From Raillietiella orientalis (lineage: Eukaryota), in assembly GCA_036172245.1 (NCBI GenBank), contig JAYWIR010000027.1, positions 434,001 through 498,000 on the forward strand: a DNA stretch of 64,000 nucleotides, given 5' to 3'. The stretch's first letter is position 1. Every line of letters starts with the position of its first letter. This document shows positions 7,201 through 63,669 of this stretch, piece after piece. Position numbers and translations under genes: made by a program. Under the pieces are notes generated by a model. The model was given only the letters and a program-made list of their open reading frames with translations, was not told the origin of the DNA and did no database searches.

Positions 7201-9556
7201 AGAGTGCAATCGAAAAACTGGGCGCAGGATCTCCTGGTTTCCGACTAGTGCAATTACACTCCCACTCTACTTGAAAGGGAGGAACAGACGTTCCCCTCAA
7301 TCGTCACTACTTTTCACATTTTGAAAACTCATGGCACACAACGACAGCTAAATTTGCGAAGATAAAGGTACAGCTCATGCGTTTGCGACAGTTACCAAGG
7401 CACGGTCTTGTCAAAGCGGACGGTTGGGTGCTTCAATGCTATGCGGAGTTACGAGAGATCTTTTTTTCTGGTGCTGCAAGCAAGGAAACAAGCTGTGTAA
7501 ACTGACACATCGAAGATCAACGCGTAATAGCTCCTTGATAACCACGACAAAAGAAAACATGCACACACGTGGTAAAATTATACCAAGTGACAAACAACAT
7601 CCGGCATTTCATTGTAAATTAACTGTTGTTGTGGGTACCGAGGTTTACTGATAAATCCCGAAAAAATATCCTTTAGTTTAACCGTTTGCCAAAAATACAC
7701 CTATAAATTCCTGGACAGTGGTCTGTAGGACTGAAAGCATGATAGTGCCATGACAAAGATTGGAGCGATTTGAAAAATTTTACAACCTTTCAAGATGAAA
7801 GTCTAACTCAAAATCAATGGTGGGAACCATGCTTAAATCCCAAAAAGCAATTTACGGGAAATTCGTTTATGGGTAACTTTCTTCAAATTTGGCCACTCGA
7901 CACAATCGGAAAATGATGAAGAAAAACAAACGCATTTATCTCATTTCCTGGTTTTCACGCTACCAATTATTATTATTCAAATGCAAAACATTTGCAGAAA
8001 ACACTTGTTGTAACACAAGCAGTCAAGTGAATATTGAATGTGATTATTAATGAAATTCCTGGCAATTCAAAACACATAATCTGCGTATCAAACATGAGTT
8101 GGAGTGACAGTATCAAGCTGGATGTCCCAGAGCATTCCCAGATACGACATCAAAATGATTACTCATGGATTGGCAAAAAGATGAATTCATTACTTTACCC
8201 TAATTGCAAACTTGCCTGGCCAGAAACCAACATCTGTTGGAACTCTGAATAAATTTTCCTTGCACACACAGTACTGACAGAATACTGACACATGCAAAAA
8301 ACTTAATCATGGCCTTCAAATGCCATGGTTGTAACATAGCGTATTGATGTTATTTTCATGAATAATACTTTAACTACATACTGATTTACAAGTTTAATCA
8401 CAAAGTGAATGCCATCAACGCCTCATTATCAACTACCTCATCATTGATATAAGAGAAATTTATCGATGTAACTGTCATAAATGCACGAATGCATTTTCAA
8501 TGTCCTACACAACTTGGTTCATGAACAAAAATCATTATTGTTCAATTTCCTATTCATTCCCACACATTCTTGTTTTTGCACTGAACTTAAACCAATCATG
8601 CTATGATTAAATACTGCTGTACATTCAATACACTTTGCTCTGTCTTTTCCCTTTACATCCTATTGCATTTTTTTAATGGTGCATTTACAAGACCTACATC
8701 TCACACATTTGAAATCAACATTTTTCAATTTGCATTCCTTCCACTTCTTTGGAAGCAGCAGCATCTCCATCTAATAGTGAATCCTCGCCAGACAAATTTC
8801 ATTACAGACAAAAAACTTGGCAACATAAGTTCATAAAATATATTATTATATGATAGCTTAATACACACCTTGAACATACCATCACCAGCACAACTGTTTA
8901 TAATATGAAAAGTTATTTGTTTGCATATCTGTGCAAAACTAAAAACTGGGCAAAGTTTGATAAGCAAAGAATACAAAAATATCAACAACTTCAGCAAACA
9001 GAAAACCAACAAAAATGCTTTGCTCCCACACAAAAACCACTTTTAGGCCAAAATCACACACAATAAAAAAACTCTGCTTATAAAGAGAATCCAAATATAA
9101 ACTTCCTGGTAATCAAGGCAACATCAATATTTGAATCCATAAACCTCCACATGATATGGCATCAGAAACTAAATTACACATAAAATATAAAGCTGACATT
9201 CTTATGCTATTAATTTATTTCTAACTATTGACTACAGAAAAAACAGCTAATTCTTACAGTCTTTACTCTTACACTCCTTTTGCACGAATGTGTAACAGAG
9301 TACTGCTCATATGACCCAATGATGGGCAATGCTCGTAATTATTAAGATTTAGATTTTAAAAATTGAAAAGCAACCTGAGAAGCAAACTGATTGCAAAGAT
9401 ACCTTGATTAAAACGGATATATTCAAGAAAGGTCTCTTGAGTGGTTATGAAATGCAATGCAGCAGAGAACTTACCAGGACTGTGCACAGCATTGCCACAT
9501 TAAAAAGTTTGTCTCAACCTTACATGTATTAGGATTAAAACAAATTTTGTCTCTCC

Positions 9557-9570
9557 TTATTTATTTATTT
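9557..9570 (-). promoter_or_regulatory. Polyadenylation signal(s) of RpL36A
   Basis: Overlapping AATAAA hexamers (AAATAAATAAATAA on minus) about 30-40 nt downstream of the TAG stop. Confidence 0.6.
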
Positions 9571-9597
9571 TCTCTCTTTTCTCAAATCTTAATCCAG

Positions 9598-10326
9598 CTA
9601 GAACTGGATCATCTGACCCTAATAATCAGAGTTTGAAAAATACTTCTTTGGAAAATTCATTTACCTTTCTTTTTCTATCACCACCTAATTCAAAGTGCTT
9701 GCAACGCTTCAAGGATAACTGCTTTCTGTATTTGCATTCTGAGCATTCCATACGTAGAACAATTTTTTTGGTTGTTTTTGCCTGAAGATGACATGCTTAA
9801 GAACATTACTGAAAGCTAAGTGACTTTACTTTTTTCCTGAAAATTGGTTTTGTTTGTCCTCCAAAACCTTTTTGTTTGCGATCATAGCGTCGTCTACCTT
9901 GGGAAACCTTTCTCTCCTTGCTTTTTTTATATTGCGTTACTTTGTGCTGGACGTGTTTGCCGCACTTACGGCAATATGTTGTTCGTTGTTTGGGTACATT
10001 AACCTAAAACACATTCTATGCATTACTGAATCTAAACAGATTGCATGCGTTTTGAGTACTCTCGGCTCAACCACATTCTTTTACCCAATTAACAAATTAC
10101 TATCGTAAATCCAAGAAGTATTAACTTCGAATAATATTTATTCATATGGTCATTTCATGAAAGTTCCATTAAGATACCATGGAACACGGCAGTTCCACAG
10201 AACCTTAGAAACGTTGCGCTTTCGATCTATCATCACAATAGTAAATTCAATAGAGGATGTATCGTAATTCAAATCGTAACAAAATATAACTCTTTCCGCA
10301 AAATGCAAAATCATTATGCTTACCAT
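9598..10326 (-). CDS. RpL36A: 60S ribosomal protein eL42 (L36a/L44), 104 aa
   Basis: Exons 10324-10326 (ATG|gtaagc), 9830-10003, 9665-9781 and 9598-9618, with GT-AG introns of 320, 48 and 46 nt. Spliced product: [104 protein letters not shown]. It has the eL42 zinc-finger cysteines and the GGQTKP motif. Confidence 0.98.
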
Positions 10327-13300
10327 TTTCAGCACGAATACTGCCTTACAAGTGGCAGGCACTTTTCCTACGTCGTCACGTGAGCTGAAACGAATCAGGG
10401 CCTCCTTTGCACTTACATGTAAAACAAAGATATGAAAACATTCTATATTATCGGAACACAACATTCCACTACGTGTATAATAATGTTGATATATACTGTA
10501 CACAAGTATATATGCATATGCATCCTACGTTTTTCATTTATCTTAGTATAAAGATGCAGTAGTATAAACACAAAGTAATATGGAAGCTATATATTAACAT
10601 ACGGAAGACAGAAAATGAAAAATATTTCATTAAGCTAGGAAGTGAACATTCATGAATAAGATATGCATTTCATTTTGTATGAAAGATACGCAGTACAGAA
10701 CATCCATCACAATTCCAATTGATTCCAATGAACATTAATCAGAGGAAATCAAGTTCTATCAAAAATTTTGGACTAATGATCTGAAATCCCAATGGCTACT
10801 CATTAAAAATCAGTTTAAATTGGAATACTGATGGCAAACATTCAAAAGAATTAATACCCAAACTTCAATGATTTTATTAATGCACTATATGTAAAGAGGC
10901 AAATAAATCAAAAAATGGTTTCAAAACATCTCCTAGCCACAATTTCAAAACACAATGATTGTAACAATGTAAGGAATAATATAAATAAATACTTTGACGT
11001 ACTCAGTACGGAACCAAAAATACGATTTAAAGAGTATTCGGACTTTGACGTGGAGTTCTTAATAATTATTACTTCAGGAGTAATTTTTTCATACTGGGTA
11101 TTATGCAATTTTGTGAGCCTAATCTAGAACTAGGTAGATTATATCATCATTTTATAAATGAAAATTTATTGATTTAAATTAGGTACTTTCAGCTTTACAA
11201 AAAAAAGTTTTGGGATTTACGTGGACTTCTATCAAAAATTAAATCGTATTTTTCCCACTGCACTTGTTCATAACTACTGGAACTGTTTTTCTGATTTAGA
11301 AAATTTATTGGCGGAGAAAAATACACCAAAAATTATTCGATCTGGAGGAGTAATAAGTCACCTGCTGCAAGGGAATCAATAATAGAAGACCCTCTAGAAT
11401 ATCTTGAGATAATGAAAATTGTAGCTGAAGCACACATGGTAAATGCCATCGCAAAGAAGCACTGCATTAAAGATCGTTAAGCGCTGTGATTAAGAGATTT
11501 GCATTTTCCCTAATCGTCGTCTATTACGCGTTCACGTAGCATTCGCGGTGCTTTGGATAGAATTCCATTCGTTTCTGTTACAGTGTTACCAGATTCTGTC
11601 TTTCCTAAAAGATACACATGATTCCATGGTTAATATATGTGCGGTCTGCATCCTGGTGATGGCAGTTTAAAAACTGATAAACTATGGAGTTCATCAGTGT
11701 CCAATGAGAAAAAGGATCTCTTTTATGCTTCTATATTTTAGAATAATATACCTAAAATTTGTTCCTCCAAATTGAATTTGAAATTGATATCTGTAAAAGA
11801 ATTTCCTCTTTTGTATGGAACCCTGGAAGAGTTTTTTTTTATTTTGCTTTCTTATCCTAAATAAGATTTGAGTAATTCTATTTTGGAAGAATTATACAGA
11901 CGGTTTCGAACGGAATGAATATTTGATAAATAGCAGAAGTTGAAAGTATGAAATAGTATGAAAGTTGCTATTTGAAAATATTTGAAAATAGCAACTTTCA
12001 TATACTTGCCGGTGAAAACACCAATTTTATTTCGTTCCGTTTAATTAAAAGTTTATTAGTGAAGGTCTTTGTGGTCGAATACCCACGATGATGTTGTGAT
12101 TCTCGTTTATACGGATTGTTTTGTTTCAGATAATAATTGGATCAGAATAACAGCTACAGGATCAAAAACGCACATACAGGACAGCATGCAGCTGTCACCT
12201 TGACAGTACCTCATAATTGCTCTAAATGAAAATTTATCAGCCTTGAGGATTGCATTCAATATTTGCGGAGAAAATCTAAAAAGAAAAAGGAACAAAAAAC
12301 AAAGTCCATGATCCTTTGCATAATTAATTGCTTTCGTACATATAGACAGAACGAGTCTTTCCATGTAGAAGATACAAAGCCGGTTGTGGGCCAAGGCAAG
12401 CTCAGCCTAGAGCCGGCTTTACCTTGCCTCTATAGTCACCTAAGGAACCAAATTTTAGAAGGCGCCAAAACTGAAAAGACTTCCAAAACACACAATATGA
12501 GTGTAAAATAACATCCTGATAGTGTTTCCACGTTGGTTTAGGAGTTTGGTTCTACACTTTTAGAAAAACCCCACGAAGTCGGTCGAGTGGTAACGAACAG
12601 CACACTAACCAGATGCTGCAAGTCACGAAATAGAAACTGCTATAATTCCCGAGGCCCATGGAATGACCATATTATTTGGATATTATTAAGGAGGAAGCTG
12701 ATAATATCACCGAAGCAGGGTCTGATAGGAAGGCAGTGAGCGGGCAGGTCTCATATAGAAGTTAGATCAGGAGAAGAAGCAGTAATGGCTCATCTTGTGC
12801 GCCAGAGCAAGATGATCAAGGAGGATTGATTCGAGGACCAAACATGATTTCGCAGCATTACTGTCAAATGACAACGATGAGTGTTTATGTGATTAAAATT
12901 ATGTTTCCTGTGAAGTAGGGTGAAAATGTCCAAGAAAGGAAAAAAATTGCCCGGTATTGAATTGAAAATCGTAAGCGTAAAGCTGAAAAACTCGGAAAAA
13001 AAAGGGAGAAAAGAAAAGAGAAGAAACAAGCGGGCACCTTTCGAAATTCCTAATAAAATCAGAAGAGCCAAACGATATCAAGCATGCCAAGGAACATCAA
13101 CCGGAAAGCAACAGTGCACTTCCGGTTGTTTGGATGAAGCAATCGAAAGCGCAATTTTCCTCATCCGATAGTTGTAAAAACGTGTAAAGGCATCTTAGGA
13201 GGCACACGTGGAAAATTGCAACACATCAACTCGACAACTCTAAATAACGATCCATTGGGTTTTTATTTCAGCTGAGCATGGAATCACCAATGAAACCAAT

Positions 13301-14608
13301 GTGTCAAAAGTTCATAGTTTGGCAAAGACGAAAAAGCTAGGAATGCTAGATGTAGCAAATAAATACATCATGTATGTTACGAGGTTTAATAACCGGAAAC
13401 AATAAGAACATTGCTGCTCTCTCCTAATTCCCGCTTATCAATCCAATCTTGGGAATTCAGGCCATGGGAGGTTCCAGAACATGAAGCAGAAAAATGTCGA
13501 GAGCAGTTCCAGAGAATAGGTATTTGCTGTCCTGCCCGTTGGCAATTGTATGCGAACAGATCGTTAACGATCGACAGGGATTTTCGCCTCTCCAGAACCA
13601 GTATTTACCAGCATTTCTCGAATTTTGCGGACCAGAACCCATATATTTCATCACATCTCTTTTTTCCTCAAAGCCACCAGGCTTCTAGTTTCGGCTGCTT
13701 GTTTTGGTTGGAGATAGATGGCAATCTTGTCGCGCACTGAGTTTCAAGTTTGACCTAAAACCTACGGTAGGAAGCCAAATCCGTGAAGTTCCCCCCCCCC
13801 CACCCCCTTTTTTTTTTTTGATGCTTGATAGTAGGACGGATTGTGATGTGATGCTGGTGTCTCGTGCATTTGCGCCGTCTTAGCGTAAGCATGCGGAAGA
13901 ATCAGAGATCTCCATTTTATTTCGGGTCATGCTGAAATATGTCCTCTGGCAAGAAGACCAGGGAATTTGCTTCGGCAGTCGATCCTGAAAGTTGCGGATT
14001 TTGAGAGGTCCAGTTTCGGACGTTTCGATTCACAGAAAATGAAGCTGAGGCCAGCGTTTCGTCTGAGCGACTCTGCCCCCCTAATCCAAGGTTCAAGTGA
14101 GGGGGATATGAGGTCGGCAGGAGGTTACGAGATGGCTTGCAGGAGTCTGGCGTCCTACTGAGCCCACAGATGGAGTTTCGAAAGAGATTTCTACAATGAG
14201 AGACGCGTTCCGTGCCGTTTCTGGTGGCGGTCTAGACCAGTCCCCCCCTAAATCTCAACAGAAACTTTCCTTTTCGTGACGCATCCTTGCAAGAGTGCGA
14301 AAAGCGGAGGAAGAGAGAAAAACGGCTCTGTGGATGATGTGCTTCTTCGAGCGCCCGCAAAGAGTCCCCAGGTGGCATTCCCAGATCTATCCCATCGTTC
14401 GTTCTTTCCGAAGAGTGGAGGATCCGATGACGGAGGCCGGCTTTAAGTCGGTGTTGAAAGCTCCTCGCTCTCTCTCATAGCGTCGGGGGTTGTTTGAATC
14501 TCTCCCTCCTCTCCGGACAGGAACAGGAAGCTCAGGCAGGCTGCTGTCCCCTTTCGTGACTCGCTATCAAGGTTCGCTTTATTCTTTTGCTTCCTAGCCC
14601 TCTCCAAG

Positions 14609-17600
14609 CTACTTCTCCAGCATGTGGTACTTTACGTACTGCAGGGCTGCCAGGTACCCCATCTGGGGACGCCGGTCCTTTCCCCTTACGAGTTTATCGA
14701 CCTGGAAAGGGAGCCCTCCGGGCTCCCTGCCCGGAAAGCAGAAGGCCCGTCGCCTACCTCCGAGGACAAGACGATGACTCCCAGCCCTTCCGAAATGGCT
14801 TTCTTGCTTTCCAGGATGTAGGAGTCCGAAACTCCCTTGCAGGCATCCTCGATGACCACCATGCGGTAACCCAGTCTCAGGGCGTCCAGGCAGGTTTCGA
14901 CTGCGAAGAGGTCGCGCGCTGCGCGTCCCCGCCAGGTCTTCCCTCGAGAGGACCTTACCGACGCAGATGTCGTAGGCGACCCCACAGAGGAACACGTCCG
15001 TGATCCCCCTCTCTAGAAGCTCCTGGTGAAGGCTCGCGCCGTTCCTCGTCCGCGCTCCGCTGGAGAATCCCGAGTACGCCTCCACCTCGGGTTCCGTCCC
15101 TTTGTAGATGAAGAGGGCGCCGTCCGCGACCTGCAGGGCGAAGAGGAAGGTCTCGGCGTCGGGAGCGGATGCCGCGTTGGCGCGAGCGAGGTCTCAATCG
15201 GCGACCCGCTTTCCCGGTCCTTCCCGGCAAAGCAACGGCTGCGGCTCCCTTTCCGCGGAGGCGGAGGGGGACTGTTTTTTATTTTTTTTTCCCATCTCCC
15301 CGTTCAGGACGCCACAAGATGATCCTCCGAGGACGGGTCAGTCGCGAGCGTTCCTGAAGGTGGGGGTGGGGGGAACTGCCCAGGCGCAGACCTTCCTGCC
15401 AGGGAACAGCACGGCATCCGCACGCGGGAGAGATGCCGCGCTGAGCGCGCTCGATGGAACACTTAACTTCAAGCCGGGGTGGATCTCGGCCCCCCAGGTG
15501 CCTTGGACGCAGTGCTTCGGCCACATTTTCTGCCGCATCGGAGGAGGCCCGGCGAAGGTCACCGTGTCGTAGAGGGAAACGTCCTCGTAGCTGACCTGCA
15601 AAAAAAAGGGGGTGGGGTGGGGTGGGCGGAAGCAGGACCGGGATGGAACTGCGGGAAGGGAGACGCCTTCTTCCCGGAGTCCCCCCCCCTTCGTCTTTGT
15701 CCTCTCTCGAGAGAAGGGAGGGTGGGGGAATGGAGCGATCTCTGGTCCTTCCCTACCACCGATCCCCGCAGACGCCGAGGGGCAGGACCCGACCCTCGAA
15801 GGCGCGATTCCCGTCTCCTCCCCCCTTGCCCGCCTCAGGGCAAGAACCGCCATCTTCGTCTTGTCCGTTCGGCACCTTCTCCCGCGCCGTCGCTCCGGAA
15901 TCTTCGACCGGGAGGGAGGCTCAGGAGAAAATGGGAGTCCCTGCTCGAGGGGAAGGACGCGGATGGCTCCACACGCAATCCTGGCGCTCCGGAGCAGAGG
16001 TGCGCGCACATGCGACCACACCCGGGAGTGGTCCGCCCCGCCTGGGGACTCCCACGCGAAGGACCTGCCCCCGAAAGGAAGGAGGGGGAGGGAGGGGACC
16101 AACAGAGGCGAAGAGCGCCTGCTGCCATCCCAGGGAAGCTCGCCGGGAAAAGGGGGGGCCCGGAGGATGAGGCAAGGAGCCAGGAGGAGCGCGCGTGGCC
16201 ACTCACAGGACCTGCTCTTCGAGACTCTTCTTCCGGACGAGTCTTCAGGGTTCCCAGCGGGACGAGGACGTCGCTGCGGCGCGCCCGCGGAGGGCGAAGT
16301 CGACAGGGCGGGAGGAGGAAGCGTCCCCCCCCCGCCTTCGTTCCCGCTCTCGAAGATCGGCGCTCAGGGGAAAAGACCCCATCCCCGATCAGCTGCGCGA
16401 ACCGCGGATTCCGTCTCGAAACGGCTCGGAGCTGACGTCACCCGAAAGCGGAGCGCTGTGCGCAGTGACGTCATCGCCGAACAGTGGGACTTTGCGAAGA
16501 GCGCGGAACGCGGCGCTCAGGCGAGTGGGTCCACGGCGCGCAGTTCGAGGGCTGCGTGCGCGTAGCACTCCCCTTCCGCGAGTTTAAACTCCGCGGCGTG
16601 AGTTAAAGGATACAAGGGACGAGGGAGTGTCCAGTAAGGGAGGGGGGGAGGCGTCACGGGGCAGCTGCAGGAACCCCGTCCGTGCTGTTGTGGGCGCGTG
16701 GAGGTTTTCCCTCCCTCCCTCCCTCCTTGATACACTATCCTGGAAGTACCCCGGAAGGTCGACTCCCAATCCCGGCCCCACTCTTCGGGGGCATCCTGTT
16801 TTTGCCAGCTTCCCCCAGTGCCGCCCCCGATCATGAGTCTCCCGAGAGTCATCTTACGGGGGGAATCCGAACCCGCGACGCACCCCCGTTTCTCTGGCGG
16901 CGGCGTCGATCCTTCCCCCCGGGCGGGATTCGAACTCGCGACTACCGCTGCCGCGCGCGGAAAGATCGCAGTCCGGCCTCCATCCTTCCTTTCGGACCTT
17001 CCTCGCCCCTTCCGGCATGCGCCGGAAAAGGTCAAAGCGCGTGACTCTTCCACGTTCCTTCTCTCTCGGCGAAGAAGGGGGGAGAGGGGGAAGCGACGTG
17101 TGGTCAGAGGACTCTCCAGGCGGCGGAGAGAGACCGAAGGACGACGAATCGGACCAACCAGAGACCAACCAGCCCGCAGCATCCGCAGCCCAGCCCCCTT
17201 CTCCCCCCTCTGGGGAGCAACGTCCGGAACAACGGCTTTTAAAGGAGGAAGGGAGGAGTCGCCCCAAAAAGGGCGAGTCGCGGGTTCCAAGACTCGAGGT
17301 CGTTCGCGAGATCACTCCGGATCGTCCAAAGTGACCTCCGGCAGCTCACGTCGCGACGCCCCTCCGGGTCGCCGCCGTTGCCGCTGTCCATCCCAGCCCG
17401 TGGCCAAGGAGGGTCTGCTTGAGCCGCAGCCCACGCTCCGCACTCCGGGATCTCGTGGGGGGATGGGAGGCGGTTCCGGAATGCCACGCGTTCCTCGGCA
17501 ATCTCCCGCCTGACGTCTGGCACTCCTCGCCCGGGGGGGGGGTTCAAGGTGCCAGTAGGATAGTGGCTCGAAGGGACTTCCCGGGACAATAGGGGGGGCA

Positions 17601-20600
17601 CTTGCAGCCGCCGACGGAGCGGTGCGGTGGTTGCTGAAGTCAGTCAAGATTGCCAAGTCTGATCAATGGATGGGAAGTTCACGCGTGCTCAGGACGTGGG
17701 CAGAAGGTGAGAGCAGGAAGGGGCCTTTCGGCTTCCCTGGGGAAGTCCAGATTTCCCCGATGCGATCTTGGGGAGTCTGGTCTCGAAGGAAGAGGAGGGA
17801 AGGGGGAAGATGCCCCGGAGAAGTGAAGGAATCACGTGGGAGCACGCGCGCGCGAGCTGCCGTAGCGCCAGCTGAAGTGGCCCGCGCAAAACCTGCGTCA
17901 CGACGGGACTCAGGTTCGCGCGTAGGCCGGCCGGCAGGGGAAGCACCTTCCTTCGCTCGTCGGGAGCGAGGAGGTTCTTCTCCCCTTCCCCTCCCCGCGC
18001 TCCCGTCATCCCGAACTCCCCGGGACGAGTCAAGGAGCACGGGAAGAAGTTCGGATCCTGGAACGGGATCCCCACGGGAGGCGCCGCAGGATGGGTTCGT
18101 TCCCCTCCGCCCTCCACCCCACCTTCGCACGCATGCGTCCTGAGGCGGGTGGGTGATCAGGACTCCAGAGGGAGTCGACGGCAAGGAGCGTGCGCAGGAA
18201 GGGAAAGGGGGGGAGGGGGGAGTGTGGGTGTCGCGGGTAGGGCGGCACATTTACGTTCTCCGCGGGATCCAGTTCTCTCAACCGGAGGTTTTCCAGGAAA
18301 GAGATGTGATTTTCGGGATGGTAATCCATGGTGTAGACCAGCTTCGCGAAATCATTGCTTTCGATGACGTCATTGATAACGGGGATGATCTGGAAAGCAC
18401 AGGTTTTTGAGGCGGCTAAGACGCGAAAGGCTTGGGGAGGCAACACGCGCGCGCGGCCCCTTCCGCTGCGGAGGGTCAGAAACACGGAAAGCTTTCCCGA
18501 CGTGTTTCGCGCGTCCCTCACCGCCCCCCCGCTACCCCTACTCTTTTTTTTTGCTCTTTGGTGTTCAGTTTCAATCTGCACTTTCCCTCCCACGTGAGGG
18601 TCTCCTTCAAAATCCGGAACAATCATATATATATATAACAACCATATGTGTGTTTATTTCTTAAACATACACATAGACATATACACTATATATATATATA
18701 TATTTGCACATTTATGTTTATATATATATATATATAATCTATAAATATTGATGCATGTCATAAGCATACACATTTATTTTTAATACTCTTTAATATACAT
18801 TAGCAATATAATCAACAACTTATTAATTATATCACCTTATTAATAATACTTAATTGCTGTTCATACTAATATATTACTAATTGCATCATTTTATTAATAT
18901 AAAATGTATGCGAATAAATCTTATATGTTCTCCAGTAATATTACTATTAATAATATTAAACATGAATAACTATGGCTGTCTAAATAAATTTGGTCGTTAA
19001 TCTATGTAGAATAAGCATTTCAATTCATTTTTATAATCTTCATGATTTAATTAATTTTAATTAATCTGTGTATTAATTTAATATATATTAATCTGTGTAT
19101 GAATATATATAAGCACATATCTTTATTTTTATCAGCTTCATGATATACATTAATCCATCTTAATATAAATATATATGTGAACATCTTTACATAAATATAT
19201 ATATATACATGTGAATATGTATAATAATGTATTTATTTTTTTAATCTTTAATACATATATCAATAATAGAATCAACAAATTATGAATTTTGTTAATAAAA
19301 TGTACACCACAGAATCTTAATAAATATATTTATTCATATTGAATAAGTTTGTATGCTAACCTATGTGGAACAAGCGTGTGCGTTTGTTCCCCACGATCTT
19401 CGGGGATTTCGGAGTTTCGAGCGCCACCGCAAGAGGCGCTTCATGCATTGTTTTCCTCAGGAACAAAAGGCGTGCCAGAACTCTCTCGCGTGCCCAACGC
19501 ATGCGGCGAAGAACACCCGAATAAAGCACGTGCGAAGTCCGTTCGTCCGCCATCGTCGCCCTCGCTCGAACCACCACCACCGCCTTCGGGTGGCCCACTT
19601 TGCCGGGTGAGAGGGTTCGCACCGCAAGCCGCGTGGCTACGGCCGCCACGCCCGGCACGGAGCTCCGCGGGCTCGAATACACCCGCAAGGAATCGACGTC
19701 GAGAAGGGACGCGTCGTGGGTCTCGGGCCGCCCTGCGCGAGTCGTTGGTCGGCTGGTGGGCTTCGGTTGCGGCACTGGTACGGCGCTTGTGCGCGGTGAA
19801 GACCGGGCGCCCCGTTGGCTAGCTGGAGGTAAGAGTGGAGACAGGCCTCCGGCGGTGCTTCCAGGAGTCGCCCTAGTCGAGGCACCTTTCCGTACACCAA
19901 GACCATGCAAGCGTGCACACACCATTTGGGGCACCGTCGGTAACTCCACGTGCGTTGCCCGGCAAGATGTGCGAGCAGGTCCTGTGGAGACGCCCGGAAA
20001 TCATCCAATAACGACCACACGCAAGAGTTCCCGTTCGAAATCTCCCCTCCGTATTCCCTCCTCCGACGCACGTATGCACGCTCTCCGGATTATCACAAAG
20101 AAGTCCAGGAATTCGTCCGACCACCACAGGCTTACGCGAGCCACGAAGGAACCCCATCGGCCCAAATGGTCCTAAACTCAGCGCTCTCCGTATGCAGGAA
20201 ACAGAAAGCCTCGAGAAATTGGGCACTCCTGCATTGTCTATACGTGTACATTCGCGAACAGATATGTGTACGCGTTCGAAAGTTTACACACGGACACACA
20301 CATAGACATATACATGTAAACACACAGGATACACGCGCGCACACATAAAATGCGCACGTGTATAGTACATGTACACTACATTTATGCGCATATGTAGTAT
20401 GTACATACATTTGTACACGCACGCGCACATGTGAACTTTACAATTCCAACTTCTTGCTGGGTTCTCTCAGCGCAACTATGTCGAATATGTGTTAACCTGT
20501 AAGTGCAATTTACATATGTCTTTTCCGCGCTATCAGGAAGAAAGTGAATACTCTTTTGCTTATTTTTTCTCCGAGGGATCACTCCGGTTCTCTGATTCAA

Positions 20601-23600: not shown

Positions 23601-26600
23601 CCCTCTATCTCCCACGTATCCCATGTCATTTCCCTCATTTAACTCGTTCACTTGATGTCTATTACCAACATCTACGATTTAGCTCTGTTGCATTAGGGGA
23701 CGATCCGAAAGCTGGACCTCTTCGAATAGTTAAATTTCCAAGGAGACGGCTTGCCAAAACGTACACCTCGGCTATCGCTACTTCTATCAGAGATCGCAAT
23801 GCAGGTGTTCTCTTCTTTTAACCCTTTGAGTGCCATGGACGCGTCTATGGGTTTGGCAAGTGCTTTCACATTGTACACGCGGCACAAATTAGCACTATCC
23901 GTGTTTGAGGTGGACGACGCATCCACTCACGTTCTTACAGTTCCCTTGGCAACGACAGTAAACGAAATTCTATTTTTATATCGGCCAACGATTTCTCTCG
24001 GTGTGGCATGTAATTTGTTATGCCGTTTTTCATCTTTGCGATATCTAGAAAAATGTGAACGAATTTCTTCAAATCATAATCATAACTTTTAAATAAATAA
24101 TATGTGTTTGGAAAAAAATGGAAATATTTCATTTAATGAGGTGTACATAAACAATTACAATGAATGAGCACTTTATGCAGTGAGTCGGTACTTCGATGGA
24201 GCACGCGGTGCGCGAAAAAGCGTTCCGTCCTTCTGTGACTCAACACGGAACGTTTCAATCTGATAAGCTCCGCACCCAAAGGGTTAATACACACAAGAGT
24301 TATTGAAGAAACCATCTTTCAGAAAGGACCAAGTCTTACTTCTAAACCTTAGAGTGCCACGAAACATTCTTTAGTTCCCCGTACGGGAGAGAGGATTCAG
24401 TCACGCCCATTGGGGTGCAAACTTTCTAATCCAAAGACCTGTTCAAGTTGCGTCGCGTCAGCGTTACCAACTTCCTGTTGTGAATCCTCCGAACTGCCAC
24501 TAGCAGACAGAGAGACCATTCCGTCCTAATCGTTTAAGCTGCGGTCTCCGGGACGAAGTACGCTTTCGCAGATCGACTCTCAAGAAACCGCAGGGTTTCC
24601 AGAACGTCCCGAAACGGATGCCTATGTATCGATGATTGTGCCTCCAGAAAATTCTAATTAATTCAGGAAGAAAAAATTCTGGATTCTGGAAACAGAGAAA
24701 TCCAACAGCTCTGGAGACGTTCTCTGCAACGGTTCCAATTCAGTTTGGAGAGCTTCCGAATTTTCACTCGTCGTTGCGCCGCATCAAGAATCGAATTTAT
24801 TGATAAGGGTCGTTGCAAAACAGGAGTGACCGGGGCCATCTCGTGCTCTCTATGAATGTTTCGCCGCTGGCGAAGGGCTTGTCCGCGAGAGGGGCTTCAA
24901 GAGCGAGCGTATTCCTTGTGGATGCAAGGACTTTTGCCTGGCGAGTTCGAACCCGCAGCCTTTCGGTCAGTTCCACGCTAAGCCCTGTTTGCTAGAGGTC
25001 TGACAGTTAGACGGTTCTAAAGGTGGCGGATCTTCTAGCAGCTCGACTGTGTAGGTGTGCGTTCGGTCTTTTTTTTTTTTTTTTAAATCCTTCCTCATTC
25101 TCTCCGGAGGGACACCCTCTGGAAAGGGGTGGTCCTCTCCATTTCAACTTCTCCGAAGGGAACCCGGAAAGGATCCGCTAGCAGGAATTTCTTCTCCGGA
25201 GGGAACCCTCAAGGGAACCGCTCCTCTTCACTCCTCTGAAGAGAACCCCGAAGGGACGCTTCCGAAACTCAGAAGGGACGCTGTAGCCTCCCGCAGGGGA
25301 ATCGCTCTCGCTTGCTTCCTTGCACTCTGTGAAGAGGCGACGACTCGGAGGGTCCCCCCCGCAACGGGGAGGGTCCGCTCCTTTGAACAACTGGAGAGGT
25401 GCCCGTGAGGGCTCCTGCTCCATCTTGAAACCGGAGGGGTCCCCCGGTGAGGGAGATCCGCTCTCCGTTGCACGACCGGAGAGGGAACTCCCCACTCCTT
25501 GATTCCTGGAAGGACCCGAAGGTTGACTCCGGCCCCCATCGGTGGCCTCCGGCTTAAACCACTACCGGTGCCACGCCCGAATGTCTCGGCCAACCAGCGC
25601 CATTGCAGGAGAAACTCGGAACCCAACGATGCAATGGCGTCAGTTTCTGCCGGAGTATTCGAACCCGCGACGCACGGTGCCACACGCGGAAGCCTTAACC
25701 ACAAGGCCTCCGACTGCGTTCGGTCTTTCGGAAAGCGTCCCAGCTAGTGCATCCATATGTCCTGGATCTGTTGATAACCTAACCCAACAACGAAAGCGAC
25801 CGGAGGGGAGGGCAGCATGCATCACGTCGCTACTATGTGCCGCCTGACCTTTTCATCGTATGGTTAAGATTGATTTAGGAGAGGTGCCTAACCGAACCTT
25901 CCACAACATCACTAGATCATTACTCAGAGAATTGCAAAATCCTTGGGTCACAAGGAAATTATCCTGGCAGGTCACCACAAAAACGATTACCGACTTCCCT
26001 CGATTTCTCTCTTTATTTTGTTTTTTGTTTTTTGTTTTTTTTTTCTACTGAAAAAGAACGTGAGATTCCCTTTCCGTTCGCATAATAGAAGCGAGCAAAA
26101 CGAATGCACCTTGAGAAACCTGCAGACGAAGACAAGAACTCGAATGTCGTTTCAGTTACCTGTTCGGCGTCCTGTCCCGCGGGGCAATCTTTCAGAGCCA
26201 GACTCCCTGTCACAAAGTCATTCTGCACATCTACGATGATTAGGGCACACTTTGGATGGCATATCTACCGAATCGCGATGTTTACAGGGAGGAAAAACAG
26301 ATCCGCGGAGCTTACTGTTTGGATCCAAAATGTCCAACAATCCTGAAACTCTGCGCGGCAGATGAAACCATCCTAAAAAGGACCAATTAGAAATTCACAA
26401 AGAAAAACGATACGTGGCTTCCGAGGAAAAAGATAAAAATCGTGCAGATAATTACTCTGTTCCTATCGAAAATGGAAAAGATCTCTGCAAGCTGAACAGG
26501 GTCTAGTTTATACGGCTGCTGTGCACAGTCGCGGAATAGGGCGCTGCATAAATTTGCAAATTCGAGTGGAGACAGTGCGTCGTCCCTATAAAGAAAATTC

Positions 26601-29600
26601 AATTTTATGCAACATGAACGGGTGGTTCAAAAAGAAGATGTTTGCAAACATGAGATTTATGATTTCTTGTCTTCGGAACTGGGAAAAAAACGGGAAGAAG
26701 GAACACGAGGCAGGGGTAATGCGTCCTTTCTGCGGACGCGTGGCTATCGTGTACCGCAGATTCCAGCATGTGGTAAAGATTAATTTGGGAGAGGTACAAC
26801 CTCGAAATACGGTAACACCTTGAGGGGGCACGACACCGTTGGCCGTTAACTGAGAGGCCTTTCGTGGAGCGCCTGGAAAACCAAGGTGTCCCGGGAAATT
26901 ATCGCTCTGATACTTCAACGGAACGTCTCAGAAGAATGACTCCGGGAGAAATCCGCAAGAATAAAAGGGTTCCGCTTATTGTGACTGGTCGAAGAGCAAA
27001 AAAGAGCAAAAACGCAAGATGCTCACGATTTACCTATTCGAGTGCTGTTTGATTTTATGAGGGACGGAGATGGTGTTTAGTTCAGAACGTTCCCAATCTT
27101 CACTTCATTCCCAAAAGTAGGTCTGAGAGGTCCGACCTTCTCAACAGGCCTGTCCAAACATCCTAAAGACAAGAAAATCCGGCTTTTTACCCGACAGTTG
27201 TCGTTTTCATTTAAGCAAACCGTACGTTCCGTTTCCTTTCATTATCCTTACAACCACTTCGCATAGACCTCACGAGGATTTTATGGGAAACACTCGACGG
27301 AAACAAGCGACCTGCCACCAAGTCTTTTGGGTGAAGGTGGCATGAGTTCATAACCCCCCCGGCAACGTGGCAGATCTCTCATGGAGCCTACGGAATCACG
27401 GTGTCCTGGAAAATGAGCCGAAGATTCAGTTTCATAAGAAAAGGGAGGAGGGAGAAGTTCAGTAAAATCGAAACGGATCACGACTCTTTCTCCTCCGGGA
27501 GCGATGCATCCACTTGAGATTTCTCAGTCTGCTGTAACAAATAACTCGTAACTAAGGTTTTCAAAAAGCTACAAAGGAGTACGAATGGAGTGCCGGCACA
27601 CCTGCTCTTTGGAAAGCCTGTGGTAGTTAAGACTTTTCGCTGCCAGACGAAGTTCAGGTTTCATCTACATATGTTGTGCTGGGGCACAAGTGAAATTCCT
27701 AACCAGAATTCAGCCACGAAAGTCATCTACATATTCACATCTTTGCTATTCTGGTAGAGCATCCTGGTATCTCAGCAAACAGAGCGCATCTAACACGAGA
27801 GTCTGAAGATCGAAAATGGAAATCTTGAGCGGGAAGGGGAAGAATTGATGCGACCTTTATATGCCCATGCAACGAGTATGCTGCATAGCAACGAAAAAAC
27901 AGCAACTCTATCTAATAGGAATGCTCCATCTTAATATTCTCTGAAGCCTTGCTGATTTTATGTATTTCAGATGGGTGGTCATGTCGTCCTCACAAGCGAC
28001 AGGATCTCTTCTCGCTTACTGCAAGTTCCATTCCGTATGGAAGCGTAAAATCTGGTGCTCTACCAACTTCCATGCTTCGCTGAATCCGACCGCATCGCCC
28101 AGACTTCGAGCTTGGGGCAATCGTCTGTTTGGGTGCCCATGTTCTCTTGTTGGAGCTTTTTTTGCCTCTGGCTGGTTTGATCACGCAGATTTCATCTGCT
28201 GATCCGCTTTGTTCATTTATTTACATCTTTGGACGTCTGCTCCCGGTACACACGCCTAAAATTTGGCATCCCTGAAGTTTCCATAGACCACCATTGGTCA
28301 TCACTTATTATTACATCACATGTTATTACAGTTGTTACTCTGAACGCTCTTGGGGGCATAAAAGCCTTTCTCTTGAGGAACGAATGTCATTCTTCGTCAT
28401 CTGCACCTAGGAGCATTTCACAGAAGGTTGGGAAGAGCACATCACGTCACACACACACCAAAGCTTTGTCCCCCGAAAAGAAAGTTAATAAACGGTGAGA
28501 GGGATTGTTATTCCATCGGCTTTGGCATCCTCCAACGGGAAAACTTTTTCCTGTGTACCCAGACGGCACTTCATTCCTCGTTTCCAGTGACACCTCAGGT
28601 CGTCTGTTAGCGCGAATACCAAACATGCGGACCCGTGCTGGCAAACAAGCGGACCACAGACTAAACCAGCAGCGTTTTACGTTACCAAGGTCCATTGAGA
28701 GAATGAAATCAGTAGCCCAGGATACGCAAATCCGAATGCAACGGAGCGACGGATCATCCGACGGAGCAGTGCCGGGAGAAGAGCATTTGGACGCGACAGC
28801 AGGTCGTCAGATTGATTGCTCTCCCGGCGTCGCCTTTGACGATCCGAACTTTTCCGACGAGTCGAGCCTTCCAGAGATGCCCCAAGGATTCTCTTAACTG
28901 CGAGGGGTTTCGCAAATCAGAACGTATTGCTCGTCTATTCCGTTTTCATAGTAGGTCTCGAATGCATCTGCCCTCTCTTATCGAAGTTGAAGAGTGAAGT
29001 GCAAGGAGTTTCTTCACAAACCCTTTTCCTTTTCTTTAGGAAAAGGAATAACGTTTGTTAACCCCTAGCATCCTAGTAGTGTCCGATGGACACATTTTCA
29101 AATTGACTCACATACGAAACCAAAAGTACTGATTTGATTGAGAAATTACTTTGTTTCATTTTCATAATTACCTTACCCTTTTTTTTTTTTTAAGAAAAAC
29201 ATCGTTTATTTGAATAATTTACCAAAACTGCAACACAACAATTCAGATGTGTCCATCGGACACTGACAGAATACTAATTCGCACCTTTGCACCTATTTAA
29301 ACCTACAAGTAAATGGCGGGAAAATTGCGTACCGTTCCTGTTTTTATTTATTCCATCAATATGTACCGACATGTGCGGAGGCGAAGATTTTATTATAGAT
29401 GGTGAGCGCCTCTGACAGCGAAAGCAACTTCACAGAAAGGGCATCTGAGGTCGATGGTCAGCAATTGTACAGTGATGACGAAAATGCAAATGAAGAGGAA
29501 CAAGAAAACCGTTGCGAGGATCCGATTGATGAAGAGCGGGGGAAGATGGAGAAAGATGGAGCCGAGGGGGGGGAGGGGAAGGCATCAGGGGCGGAGTGCA

Positions 29601-32600
29601 CGAGGTTGCTCTCCCGCAAGAGAAGGGAATCCAGGACCCTATCGACAGTCCCCATTTGTTTTTCGTCCGCACTTTGCTGGAACATATTGCAGAGCGCACC
29701 GATTCCGAAGCTGAAAGAGAATGGGGAAGGAACAACCGAATTGCAAGCATTTATGGGTCCACCATTGACCACTGGTGTTTATTGGACAACAGAGCAACGT
29801 GGATTCTCCTTGCGACCGCGGGGAGAAATCCATTCGCGTCTATCCCACGTTTTCTAAGATCTGAAGACCAAAATACCATCGCACTTAAAAAGCCAAGAGG
29901 TGGACCAGCACTAAGAAAACAATTTTTGCTAAATGTCCTTACTAATCACATTGCTTAATAATAAGAACACGACTTGTCTAACGTGATGACTACTCATTTT
30001 TTTTCACATTATTGAATTCATTTTAGTATAATTTAGAGTAATCCGTCTATCTGGTCAGTTGCATTAGGAAAACACGTTGGGACGTTAAGGGTTGAGCGGT
30101 CAGTTCTGATGTTTTCCTATTCACTTCTCTTCTTTTTGATGGAGACAAAGGCCTCAAGGTATGAAAACAAAGATGAGATGGAACGAGGAAAGATTTTCAC
30201 CAATCCGCAATCCGTTCCCACTGTGATCACTTCATTTGTACAGTTAGGGAGGCTGTACGTTCCGGATTGAAGATTTCGAAATAATCGGTTGATAAGGAGC
30301 AGCCGCTGGTCTTCGTCGAAGTTGCCGCCGCACCGGAAGTGGGATTCCACTAGTGCATCCCCCTCGGGATGCGCCTAGGACTTCAAGAGCTGTGCTGGCG
30401 TGCACCCCACTTCCAGGGATGCAGGAGCTGCTGGGCTCGATCACTGCCTTGGCAGATGGCCTCTATCTGTGACGATGGCACCAGCGTTTTCAGGACGTCA
30501 ATCAAGGAGGGCATGCAGCTCAATACGCAGGAGCTGGAGCGAATCTGGACTTGCGGATGCTCGGGAATGATCTTCCTCATGGAACGGGGGCACGAGAAGG
30601 CAGCAGCTATCTCATGACAAAGATGCGACGGGGGAGGCAAAGCAAGTCAGCGCATCGCGGAAAGTCCACCACGAGATGGGAATCGCGAAAATTCGAATCT
30701 TTGGAAGAGAAAACAAGCCACTTTTAACTGCGCCCGTGTTTCCCCTTCTCCCCTGTCCATCCCTCTTCCCCATTCTGGAACTTGAGGCTGAAGGAAAGAA
30801 AGCGCTCGAAAGAGCGTTCTCGACGTGCATCTTGAGAAGTGAAGAGGATATCGGAGGAAACGGAAATGCAAGCGGCATTACGAAAGCACACCGTCACCGC
30901 AGCTTATCAGAGTCCTTTTAAGCATCTGCGTCGGAGTCTTTAACGCACCCGAATCTTTCGGCCCAGTGATTCTACTTCTGTAGGGAGGAGAGCCACAGAA
31001 TAAGGGGATGACGAAAGCACAAGGGCTGGCTCCAGCAGCAGGAAAAATCCGTCAGATTGCAGCGACGCGAGTACGACGCGAGTACGAACCGGAGAAATCC
31101 TTGCGGCCAAAATGGGGAGCCGAAGCAGAGAACACGTATCCCCGGACTCAGGAAAGCCGAGGTCAGAATAAACGACCTAGTCACTAAAGGGACACAAGGA
31201 AAGCAAGGCAGGAGGCGCCTCTGCCAAAGGGCGCAGCAGGAGCAAACTTCCACGCAAAACGGAAAGCGGACGAGCCTCAACAGCGAAAGGAACGGAAACC
31301 CACCGCCGTCTGGGAGGAGAAGACGAACTTTTGGAGATAACCGAGGCCAAAGCCCGGGAGCAGCAACATGTCAAGAGAAAGGAAAGAGGTTAGGGCGTAC
31401 GGCTTAATTAAGGAATGGATTCTTTTTCAAAATGAGCTGAAGCTCTTAAGTGTGTCGAATTCCCTCTCGAGGAACGCAGAATTCAACATACTAAGAGCGT
31501 CCAGCGCTGTCTTGCAAAATGGTCAAGATGTGTCGGACCGGCATCTAATGCTGAAAAGACATTCGGAGTAGAAAAGCCAAGCAGAATAGGGAAGAAATTT
31601 TACGCCATGATCACGAACTCACTCAAAGGTGTGCGACACTGAGACAGAATCCCAAAAGAGGAGGAGGAAGAAAAGGCTTGAAACGAGGGTTCCTCCTTCA
31701 TTTTTTCTCTTCGTTGCGATTGGATTCCCGTTGTACTTGTTTTTGTACATGTTTTGCTTCCAATGAGTCACCCCAGCTCTGATGGGAACGAGGAAGATGA
31801 CTTGCGGCTATGTTGCTCGCGGACGAAAACGCAGCGCACTTGCACGCGTTCTTTCCATGCACGCGGCAACAACTACAAAGCAACGGGTCCGGAGCCTGAA
31901 GAGAACGGACGACAGCATGGAACCGCCTGCCGTACTTACGAGATCGATAAAGACTCCGGAGTGCCTGCCGACGGTGTCGATCGCTTCTTTGCTCAGGGGC
32001 AACATGGCGGCTCATGAGGTTCGCTGGGGCACGAGCGCTGAAAACTTCGGTCGCCACCACACGATCTTTCGGGCCACGCGCCAACGGGAAGCGGCGGCGG
32101 CGGAGACGATTTTCTCGATCGCGAGGGGAAAGAACGGAGAGTCGAGAACAGACAGGGAGAACTCCCCAAGGCTGCAAAGTTGACGAGGCAAATTGTGCAT
32201 AGTGGGGCGGATTTCGAGAAACTCCTAAGGAAACCTCCCATCCGCATTCGCCTTCTTCGAACCCCAAAATTTCGATTCTCAAGACGCTTCCTCTCGAACC
32301 GGCACCGAGAGATCACTGCTGCTTCAAACGACAACTCGGTTTTTGCTATCTTGCTGTGGTGGAATCTTCGATTCCAAGTGGTCCTTATTTAATTGGGAAA
32401 TGAACGAAAGTCAGATCCGACCACAACAGGATGCTCATGTTGACCTCCTCAAATGTGTCTAGTCTCTTCCCTCATCCTTTTCCCAACGAGCAAGGCTACC
32501 CATGAGGATGCTCTTTGCGCAGAAGTACACTAAACAAGAGGATGCACATTGAAAGCAAGATCGCACCTCCGTTAAAGAGTTCGCTCTCAAGCGGAAGAAA

Positions 32601-37567: not shown

Positions 37568-38219
37568 CCTCTCGCAGCAAGTAGCTTTCGCTTTCGCGGG
37601 CCTTCAGTGCAACCGTGGAGGATGGATACTGACCGATGGCGGACGACTCGGCTTCTCCGCTTAACGCCTCAAGTCCGCGGAGACTTGTCAGAGACGGACC
37701 ACAGACTTTCCGAAGTGCAAAGCTTCCGTGACAATGATGCTCACTCTGGAATGCAAACAAAAAACACTGGATGGAAGGCACAAGAAAAAGCAGCTCCGAG
37801 CCTGTATTTATTTAGTGCAAGGTGAGTTCGACTGACGCCAAAAGGCTTCGCAAGTTGAGTCACGGAATCTAGGATGGGATACCTCAGGGGAAAACTACGG
37901 TATTTATCAGTCGACATCACTTGATATGGTCACAGTGCACAACTATTTTCCAAAACGGTTTCCGTTTAATGCAGGGTTTGGCTTGAGATGGTTTCCAGGG
38001 AAACATGGAATAACCTGGACCTGCGCCGTGGTGCATTGTCATATCCCATCCATCTATTATTTATTCGCTTTTTTTTTTTTGTACAGCACTGGCATTCTCT
38101 GTTAACAGTTATTATGGTAAAAGACTGGTACCTTTGGAGACAATCTGGTTGAGGGAAAAATGGTGATGAAAGCCTTCCTGAAAAATTCTTTGCGTTGTTG
38201 GAGTGTTTCGAGCTTTCTA

Positions 38220-38327
38220 CATATACACATACATACACAAAAATACAACATACATTATATATATATATATATGTATGTATGTATGTATAATACATATGTG
38301 TTTGCTTATATGTGTGTGTGTGTGTGT
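38220..38327. repeat. (TA)n/(TATG)n/(TG)n microsatellite
   Basis: Directly visible tandem di- and tetranucleotide runs. Confidence 0.9.
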
Positions 38328-38404
38328 TCATTATGGTGTCGCATGCCTTGCGGGTGACCACTTCGCTGAGCCCGAGACTCCAGCACAAAGCAGGCAGCGA
38401 TGAT

Positions 38405-39063
38405 CAGGGTTGCCAATTTAGCAGTTTTCCCGCTAGATCTAGATTTTTGAGGATCTAGCGGATAAAAGTATTTGATCCCTCCGAGCGGGAATTCTAGCGG
38501 AAAGTTTAAATCCCTGGCCGCCGAAGTTTGCGGGTTTTTCTTGGTTGCAAAGGAAAATTTTCGATTATAGATGTTGTAGATTGTCTTTCGGAATGGAATT
38601 CCGGATATTTGATCCACCCCTGTTTCCATCTTGGAGGTTATGGCATCACATTAATAAATTGTTGACAAACATTGGCCAAAATAACCGACTTCCTTGTTAT
38701 TTAAATATTTTGATATTTAAATAGTGATTGTTGTGATGCAGAGGCAAATTACAATTCACAGATTGCCCGAACGGTTTTCTTTTAAAAAGCGGTAAACAAA
38801 ATGGCGGTGCGGCGCTCTCCCTACAAACGTATCGAGCACGTGCGTCAAAGCTCCACATCATAAATTTTCCGTGATCGACAATTAATTGTCTGCATTTTAT
38901 TTTGGTCTCTTGAATCTGAAGATTAAATGACATTAAATGATTTACTAATACTAATGATGATGAATTTCTAGGTATTAAGATTGTAGATTTTTCTTTTTTT
39001 GGAAAAACGCAAGTTTTCGAAGACCATCTAGCGGGGTTCCATTAACTTCTGCTGGCAACCATG
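38405..39063. mobile_element. Non-autonomous hAT-type MITE (659 bp)
   Basis: 11-bp TIRs CAGGGTTGCCA / TGGCAACCATG (1 mismatch). The 8-bp flanks GCGATGAT and GTGAAGAT match at 6/8, and 8 bp is the hAT TSD length. CTAGCGG motifs repeat subterminally at both ends. Confidence 0.8.
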
Positions 39064-43600: not shown

Positions 43601-44050
43601 TCCTGTCGGACTCTGGTTTCTTCGCTGCTTCATGTATGGCCATCTTCACTAAAGAGCGAACCGCATCTTCCTTCACACAATCTTCAAGCTCACCCATTCT
43701 AATCGCGCGCGCTCGACTCAGCATGTATGCAGCCTGTGGTGTTTGTCACCGAGTGTCAACTGAAATCTCAGTTCTGTATCTCAGCGAGTTCAACAGCAGC
43801 CATTGAAGCAAATTCCAGAAGAGTTCACGATGCCAAATACTGCGGAGCCTGGTCTCGGATTTAGGTGGCTGTGACTTCGAATGAGCTCTGAAGAGTGTTC
43901 TGCCCAGAACGGTGCCAGGCTTCGCAGAAACGGGAGAGAAATGCAATTCCGTGGAAAAGCTCAGGAGGAGCATGCAGCTCTCGAAGCATGGAAGACTCTG
44001 GCATTTAACAGTAAGCACTAGGTGGCAGATTTGGAGCTGCAAACGAGCTG
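40700..44050 (-). mobile_element. Heavily decayed coding-like relic, possibly a Mutator-like transposon with SWIM and cysteine-protease remnants
   Basis: Scattered minus-strand motifs among stops and frameshifts: WSSFSCRHMNRVL (SWIM-like, about 43435), VRGSGNCLFLA (OTU-like, about 43260), and IDSLN and QQKPAGGND (Ulp1-like, about 41250-41340). Confidence 0.2.
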
Positions 44051-63570: not shown

Positions 63571-63669
63571 NNNNNNNNNNNNNNNNNNNNNNNNNNNNNN
63601 NNNNNNNNNNNNNNNNNNNNNNNNNNNNNNNNNNNNNNNNNNNNNNNNNNNNNNNNNNNNNNNNNNNNN
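63571..63669. other. Assembly gap (about 100 N)
   Basis: Run of N bases. Confidence 0.99.

Follow-up and report, generated by a model that had tools for sequence, protein, structure and literature searches.

An apparent TT-AG intron in an otherwise intact nicotinamidase gene of Raillietiella orientalis

The window analysed here, a stretch of 64,000 nucleotides from Raillietiella orientalis (assembly GCA_036172245.1, contig JAYWIR010000027.1, positions 434,001 to 498,000; all coordinates below are those of the window), carries on its minus strand a gene for an animal-type nicotinamidase, one intron of which appears to begin with TT rather than GT. The structure of this gene was derived from tblastn searches of the window with 12 full-length homologues and from inspection of the exon flanks. 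Eight coding exons were found, all on the minus strand; with the TT-AG junction as the link between exons 6 and 7, 320 codons can be read without interruption down to a terminal TAG. The features of the gene are the following, with a slash marking each boundary between exon and intron.

26456 to 26585, minus strand: coding exon of the N-terminal region (DDALSPLEF...FDRNR), from tblastn with the 12 homologues; acceptor tatag/G, donor AGA/GTAATT
26316 to 26372, minus strand: coding exon (DGFICRAEFQDCWTFWIQT); donor ACA/GTAAGC
26160 to 26264, minus strand: coding exon in which the isochorismatase-like fold starts, with ALIIVDVQNDF; donor CAG/GTAACT
18255 to 18389, minus strand: coding exon (IIPVINDV...MDYHPENHISF...); donor AAC/GTAAAT
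15467 to 15595, minus strand: exon 6, 129 nucleotides, 43 residues, ending ...WPKHCVQGTWGAEIHPGLK; aligned with positions 60-83 of the PF00857 profile and residues 176-214 of 9u8m_A
15131 to 15466, minus strand: intron 6, TT...AG, 336 nucleotides, phase 0, delimited from the sequence
15461 to 15466, minus strand: donor hexamer TTAAGT, its first T (plus-strand A at 15466) occupying intron position +1
15131 to 15152, minus strand: pyrimidine-rich tract and acceptor (accttcctcttcgccctgcag/G), from the sequence
14959 to 15130, minus strand: exon 7, 172 nucleotides, VADGALFIYKGT...CGVAYDICV, carrying the DxCV cysteine and the conserved YKG lysine; donor TCG/GTAAGG
14758 to 14900, minus strand: exon 8, 143 nucleotides; donor GAG/GTAGGC
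14609 to 14701, minus strand: last coding exon, ending with TAG, from tblastn

Outside intron 6 the splice sites of the gene are ordinary: the six other donors all begin with GT (GTAATT, GTAAGC, GTAACT, GTAAAT, GTAAGG and GTAGGC), and the acceptors are invariably AG. A scan of the minus strand from 26586 to 40000 with a hidden Markov model built from the homologues did not reveal the first exon, which should carry the ATG (best E value 6.6). Upstream of the gene, a segment resembling exon 6 (28718-28798, minus strand), which reads QMLFSRHCSVG, an in-frame stop and then SVAPLHSDLRIL, was rejected as a chance similarity; it was matched by 4 of the 12 tblastn queries with E values of 0.25-0.84 and by the profile with an E value of 23.

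On sequence evidence, the encoded protein is a nicotinamidase of the animal type, in which an N-terminal region is followed by the isochorismatase-like fold. Three of the four exon peptides tested match the PF00857 profile colinearly (profile positions 60-83, 100-127 and 130-164), with scores of 12.2, 17.5 and 24.6 bits, each by itself under the curated cut-off of 27 bits. The best solved relative is 9u8m_A, a chain of 357 residues named nicotinamidase, which is matched by exon 6 with an E value of 3.2e-15 and by exon 7 with an E value of 3.7e-10. When exon 7 was compared with 1.84 billion representative proteins, 230 of them were retrieved at E values of 0.001 or lower, the best 150 of these 230 making up the list of hits used below; among the matches listed, the closest full-length homologue is 50% identical to the model.

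The model retains 23 of the 29 columns that are at least 85% conserved in 28 full-length homologues, including H170, K195 (the K of YKG) and C241 (the C of DxCV); the model also has VDVQNDF with its D and MDYHPENH with its D/H/H. The catalytic Asp-Lys-Cys and metal-binding Asp/His roles assigned to these residues are those described for PncA and Pnc1. One of the six lost columns is the start methionine, which lies on the exon that was not located, and the other five are clustered just after YKG. In this stretch (15040-15095, minus strand; model residues 202-217) the model reads EAYSGFSSGARTRNGAS, with EAYSGFSSG where most homologues have DSYSAF.DN...T, a divergence that could represent a lineage-specific change or a locally relaxed constraint. 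With the exception of this one divergent loop the gene looks intact, as had been claimed in an earlier note on this stretch, and its product is probably functional, as judged from the sequence. A decayed pseudogene was rejected in view of the open 320-codon frame, the six other GT donors, the AG acceptors and the 23 conserved columns out of 29, the 5' end lying outside this check.

Exon 6 ends with TGG CCG AAG CAC TGC GTC CAA GGC ACC TGG GGG GCC GAG ATC CAC CCC GGC TTG AAG, and its last base (15467) is followed by TTAAGTGTTCC, the first six letters of which (15466-15461) are TTAAGT. Exon 7 starts with GTC GCG GAC at 15130, right after the pyrimidine-rich ...cgccctgcag. Both the letters and the coordinates agree with the earlier note, in which the TT-AG intron was first pointed out. 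The exon peptides abut on 9u8m_A, where residues 5-43 of exon 6 align with 176-214 and residues 2-57 of exon 7 with 216-270, and the junction between K43 and V1 corresponds to 214/215 of that chain. The K/V junction is thus gapless, as the same note had stated by comparison with a fly-type string, HKDLKVVDHGIKVYKGT, which is found letter for letter in one of the homologues (P0054). TT-AG and GT-CA are two descriptions of one and the same messenger RNA (mRNA).

The position of the junction is further defined by the distance between two motifs on either side of it. The spacing from P.HC. to.KG is 26 in 34 of the 42 homologues (of the 150 listed) that span both motifs, and it is 26 in the TT-AG join. 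Among the remaining homologues, the spacing is 27 in three, 30, 31 and 33 in one each, and 46 and 55 in two in which this intron has evidently been read through unspliced; a spacing of 28, which a product longer by two residues would have, is found in none of the 42. Judged from these sequences, the family spacing is reproduced by the TT-AG join alone. When the candidate products were scored with a profile of the 28 full-length homologues, the TT-AG join received 402.5 bits. The product extended by two residues through the GT at 15460 scored 395.5 bits, 7 below the TT-AG join, and the one extended by 25 residues through the GT at 15391 scored 384.0 bits, with its match split over two domains; the product shorter by one nucleotide and that with the intron retained scored 246.3 and 239.2 bits, respectively. 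The nonamer AAGTTAAGT, located at 15461-15469 on the minus strand, is not rare (two matches in the window against 0.49 expected, a number reached in 10 of 100 shuffles), and what is non-random about it is its exact placement at the break in homology.

To survey the alternatives, all GT and GC dinucleotides between 15485 and 15339 were listed, and complementarity to U1 was scored over 11 positions. The TT donor with its flanks, AAG/TTAAGTGT, is complementary at 8 of the 11, which is equal to the best value in the gene. The other candidates of interest are these.

15466 to 15467, minus strand: GT in register -1, formed where the final G of exon 6 meets the initial T of the intron, GAA/GTTAAGTG; 4 of 11 positions in its own register
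15459 to 15460, minus strand: in-frame GT, AGT/GTTCCATC, adding two residues (LS); 2 of 11 positions
15412 (first base), minus strand: in-frame GT adding 18 residues; 3 of 11 positions
15390 to 15391, minus strand: in-frame GT, AAG/GTCTGCGC, adding 25 residues; 5 of 11 positions
15376 (first base), minus strand: in-frame GT adding 30 residues; 2 of 11 positions

Joined to the same acceptor, the GT in register -1 costs one nucleotide and leads to a stop at model codon 223, within exon 7, which bears out the frameshift described in the earlier note. The in-frame GT at 15391 was likewise correctly described there as weak and as inserting 25 residues; the claim that this site and the TT-AG/GT-CA join are the only in-frame options was incomplete, since the sites at 15460, 15412 and 15376, complementary to U1 at two or three of the 11 positions and adding 2, 18 and 30 residues, had been missed. 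The frame remains open for 42 codons into intron 6 and then meets TGA. Rescue of the -1 GT by a different acceptor was rejected, the sole other AG in the last 60 nucleotides being located 21 nucleotides upstream and in the wrong phase. A U12-type intron was rejected as well, given that, on inspection by eye, no resemblance to the U12 donor and branch-site boxes is seen in the donor TTAAGTGTTCC or in the final 40 nucleotides. Finally, RNA editing was considered and dismissed: the cases described by Parada et al. (2014; PMC4176328) convert A to G, and A-to-I editing cannot rescue this donor because the base is T.

The intron itself is old. In 53 of the 150 listed hits, the position just before that of the first residue of exon 7 is occupied by Q, usually after F, L, S or P; these hits carry no upstream homology, a pattern expected of a gene caller that reads through a ...ttYcag acceptor. 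Four hits (P0045, P0052, P0135 and P0149) are read-throughs of the whole intron, and in each of them the first intron codon is V, that is, GTN. Because of these Q-preceded and V-starting read-throughs, a phase-0 intron at the same spot is concluded to be widespread in other animals, and because the four read-through relatives start the intron with GTN, the TT of R. orientalis is, by sequence comparison, the derived state, its relatives opening the intron with GT. A metagenome scan with the 24-nucleotide donor region, with N at +1, gave no matches, and protein searches aimed at gene calls of close relatives that run through the donor, made with exon 7 among longer proteins, with exon 6 plus read-through as part of a 341-residue open frame, and with the 85-residue exon 6 plus read-through among proteins of similar length, returned nothing.

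TT donors have been documented in human genes. In the reporter work of Erkelenz et al. (2018; PMC6280755), the use of non-canonical donors is reported to decrease in the order GC > TT > AT > GA > GG > CT, and the TT test sites fit the pattern ..G TTAAG.A. According to the same report, maximal complementarity to U1 results in cutting at both -1 and +1, whereas GT at +5/+6 together with reduced complementarity results in accurate cutting at +1. The natural donor of ETV1, aAG TTAAGTtg, was cut in the reporter at +1 only, and that of FBXO9, aAG TTAAGTAT, at both -1 and +1 (PMC6280755). In the study of Parada et al. (2014; PMC4176328), ETV1 is listed as a constitutive TT-AG junction validated by reverse transcription polymerase chain reaction (RT-PCR), and the supplements report TT-AG junctions of ETV1 and FBXO9 with reads from 13 and 15 tissues; in its data file the string TTAG occurs 40 times, 27 of them in the sheet of all candidates and the rest from the sheet of U2/U12-like junctions onward. 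In the main text of a third paper (PMC7072748) TT-AG does not occur. The rare functional TT donor suggested in the earlier note is of a form that is not unprecedented, given that ETV1 and FBXO9 use aAG/TTAAGT and that TT ranks second after GC (PMC6280755); because of this precedent the functional option gains weight and loses novelty. The three options of that note, namely a functional TT donor, a fresh null allele and a base-call error, still cover the live readings.

The reading that we tentatively prefer, with a confidence that falls somewhat short of even, is that the T is real and that the donor still yields an in-frame mRNA, probably beside some product of register -1. A TT donor is favoured because no other lesion is found in the gene, no credible alternative donor is available, and the remainder of the site is all consensus. 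Under this scenario, the site would formerly have been a consensus donor, most likely altered by a genuine G-to-T change at +1, and would now act as a U2-type non-canonical TT donor, as in human ETV1 and FBXO9. By extension from the human reporter work, U1 small nuclear RNA (snRNA) would still dock, complementarity being kept at all positions but +1 and GT being present at +5/+6. The later spliceosome would then cut before TT (register +1), giving an in-frame product with the K/V junction and presumably an active enzyme, or alternatively at the GT one base upstream (register -1), with the loss of one base and a premature stop in exon 7. GT at +5/+6 and sub-maximal complementarity to U1, the two features that went with accurate cutting at +1 in the reporters (PMC6280755), are both present at this site. 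The expected outcome would be a working gene, possibly with reduced output, and not a dead one. The sequence, the gene model, the gapless junction and the absence of a good alternative donor are observed; the reality of the T and the choice of register are deduced.

Part of the argument concerns the odds. GTAAGT is found in none of the six other donors of the gene, and only a few percent of human donors carry it. A random error or a null mutation at +1 would seldom strike a donor with an all-consensus remainder, whereas usable TT donors display exactly that pattern; that all-consensus donors are a minority is taken from the six other donors of this gene and from general donor frequencies. The narrower proposal, that the T is fixed in the species and the intron constitutively spliced from the TT donor, in an invertebrate metabolic gene and independently of human ETV1 and FBXO9, is possible but has to be regarded as doubtful.

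Several considerations weigh against a usable TT donor. The odds argument draws in part on general donor frequencies and may be inflated, because a near-consensus site is easier to notice. The support for the T being real and used consists of indirect arguments, from sequence and from analogy with published sites. By comparison with the relatives TT is derived, and the sequence would be no different had it arisen as a single-letter error or as a lesion of very recent origin. The cluster of lost conserved columns after YKG could reflect some relaxation of constraint. In human reporters the frameshifting register -1 can dominate in some contexts: the donor CAG TTAAGTGT, placed in another reporter, was cut nearly only at -1, with a nearby upstream GT site also used (PMC6280755), and by analogy such cutting would mean a frameshift here. 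As reported in the same paper, most human GT>TT donor mutations disrupt splicing, and non-canonical sites in the reporters were strictly dependent on nearby enhancers (PMC6280755).

Among the rival explanations, an error of base calling or assembly survives best, although we consider it rather unlikely. The true donor would in this case be AAG/GTAAGT, with G miscalled as T, or AAG/GTTAAGT, with one G of GG dropped, and the intron would be of the ordinary GT-AG type. A one-letter change would indeed give a canonical donor exactly where 34 of the 42 homologues need the junction, the relatives read GTN at the start of the intron, and the rest of the gene is normal; moreover, the window comes from a scaffolded assembly and contains a run of 99 N at 63571-63669 (a scaffold gap or a masked stretch). 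Set against this, the error must have hit one particular base of the 64-kb window and would be expected to fall on donors at random, yet the affected one has an all-consensus remainder that is seen in none of the six others. The nearby simple-sequence and AT-rich stretches are assembled without gaps, which hints at long reads, and substitutions are the rarer type of error in long-read assemblies.

Alternatively, the T could be real and the allele dead or nearly so, either as a recent loss-of-function allele on the sequenced haplotype or as the first lesion in the loss of the gene; this we regard as unlikely. Splicing would then proceed mainly from the -1 GT, so that one nucleotide is deleted, translation ends early in exon 7 and the mRNA is probably degraded, or the intron would be retained. 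The -1 GT does exist, its use leads to a stop at codon 223, ahead of two remaining exon junctions, and a mutation of very recent date is in keeping with the lack of other lesions. Reporters with G/TTAAGT use -1, in some contexts nearly exclusively, FANCC c.165+1G>T was found by another group, as cited in PMC6280755, to be cut at -1 only, and most human changes of this kind are disruptive (PMC6280755). Conversely, donors of the present class (aAG/TTAAGT, with GT at +5/+6 and incomplete complementarity at -3 and +7) gave accurate cutting at +1, and natural human genes depend on the same donor class (PMC6280755). A null allele, furthermore, is not expected to be enriched for a consensus remainder, and a second lesion is absent. 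Low use of the mutant FANCC TT site went with milder disease (PMC6280755, citing Hartmann 2010).

Rescue of a real T by a cryptic intronic GT (15460, 15412, 15391 or 15376), with an insertion in the loop before the YKG lysine, is highly improbable: although all four sites are in frame with the same acceptor, longer loops occur in some of the 42 homologues (spacing of 27 in three, and single cases of 30, 31 and 33) and the two-residue form costs just 7 bits against the family profile, the U1 matches are 2, 3, 5 and 2 of 11 against 8 of 11 at the TT site, the spacing of 28 is found in no homologue, those of 46 and 55 are unspliced read-throughs, and with the 25-residue form the match to the profile falls apart into two domains.

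Provided that the T is genuine and splicing does use the junction, R. orientalis would offer an independent natural TT donor that shares its sequence signature with the human examples and would be useful for testing the generality of the rules for non-canonical donors. Gene predictors and read mappers limited to GT, GC and AT donors would render this gene broken or in the wrong frame, a point on which the site would be a caution. Were the T fixed and the intron constitutively spliced, the rule derived from human reporters (a consensus remainder, GT at +5/+6 and no strong competing donor) would be suggested to hold across animals and would mark the donors able to survive the loss of G at +1. 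Should the site instead be a null allele or an error, the nicotinamidase model would need read support before the presence or loss of this enzyme of nicotinamide adenine dinucleotide (NAD) salvage is inferred. A real TT donor would add one more case to a known rare class of introns; otherwise the site is an artefact or an ordinary defective allele.

The composition of the surrounding DNA is very uneven. The region from 14001 to 18000, which takes in the large intron and the 3' half of the nicotinamidase gene, has a G+C content of 61-66% and is rich in CpGs and in runs of C or G; the surroundings of the upstream exons, at about 26 kb, are at approximately 45-50% G+C, and the regions 8001-12000 and 44001-52000 are at 32-35% G+C, with (TA)n and other simple repeats. 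Within the G+C-rich intron 5, a stretch at 16890-16965 (minus strand) resembles the 3' part of a transfer RNA (tRNA) (...ggtagtcgcgagttcgaatcccgcc...) and is negative with ARAGORN and Rfam; it is, if anything, a fragment of a tRNA-derived repeat. In the window as a whole, ARAGORN found no tRNA gene and Rfam gave no match.

Two inverted copies of a repeated element are found at 32576-33434 (plus strand) and 35807-36453 (minus strand), approximately 2.5 kb apart. Comparison of their frame translations reveals long identical strings (for example, ...SEGICFFEGIGSLLCTLWRGGDTPTPWRIPPKCGYAPLHYKGGTP...), and the element probably belongs to a dispersed repeat family. Further along, at 49035-58037 on the plus strand, long open frames of up to 270 residues follow one another, separated by apparent short introns, and can be taken as a lead to a large nucleoporin of the Nup188/Nup192(Nup205) type. 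For the segment 53534-54343, a feature search of the ESM Atlas gave 0.96 to clusters of the Nup188 N-terminal domain, with a recognition value of 1790, below the mark of 2300.

Compared with known systems, the protein belongs with the animal nicotinamidases of the Naam/PNC-1 type, full-length members of which are 40-50% identical to the model and share with it the motifs VDVQNDF, HP..H.SF, WP.HCVQ, YKG and DxCV; it differs from them after YKG, in reading EAYSGFSSG for the usual DSYSAF.DN. The intron shows TT at +1/+2, AG at its 3' end and a junction demanded by the coding frame, along with G at -1, TAAGT at +2 to +6 and a second GT at +5/+6, which are the sequence features of the U2-type TT-AG class. 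It shares with human ETV1 and FBXO9 the nine-letter core aAG/TTAAGT, the G at -1 that creates the upstream GT, the GT at +5/+6, and an ordinary pyrimidine tract with an AG acceptor. At +7/+8 it has gT and is intermediate, ETV1 having tg there, without any complementarity, and FBXO9 having AT, which is fully complementary. The two human junctions are proven by reads of RNA from 13-15 tissues, with RT-PCR in addition for ETV1; the present one is known from the genomic sequence. FANCC c.165+1G>T offers a further parallel, with the same G-to-T change at +1 and the same remainder, TTAAGT, and in it the frameshifting register -1 competes with the correct register +1; however, the exon side of FANCC is weaker (atG, against aAG here), and FANCC c.165+1G>T is a known disease allele. 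In mechanism, by analogy with ETV1 and FBXO9, the nicotinamidase intron of R. orientalis would thus match the known U2-type TT-AG class.

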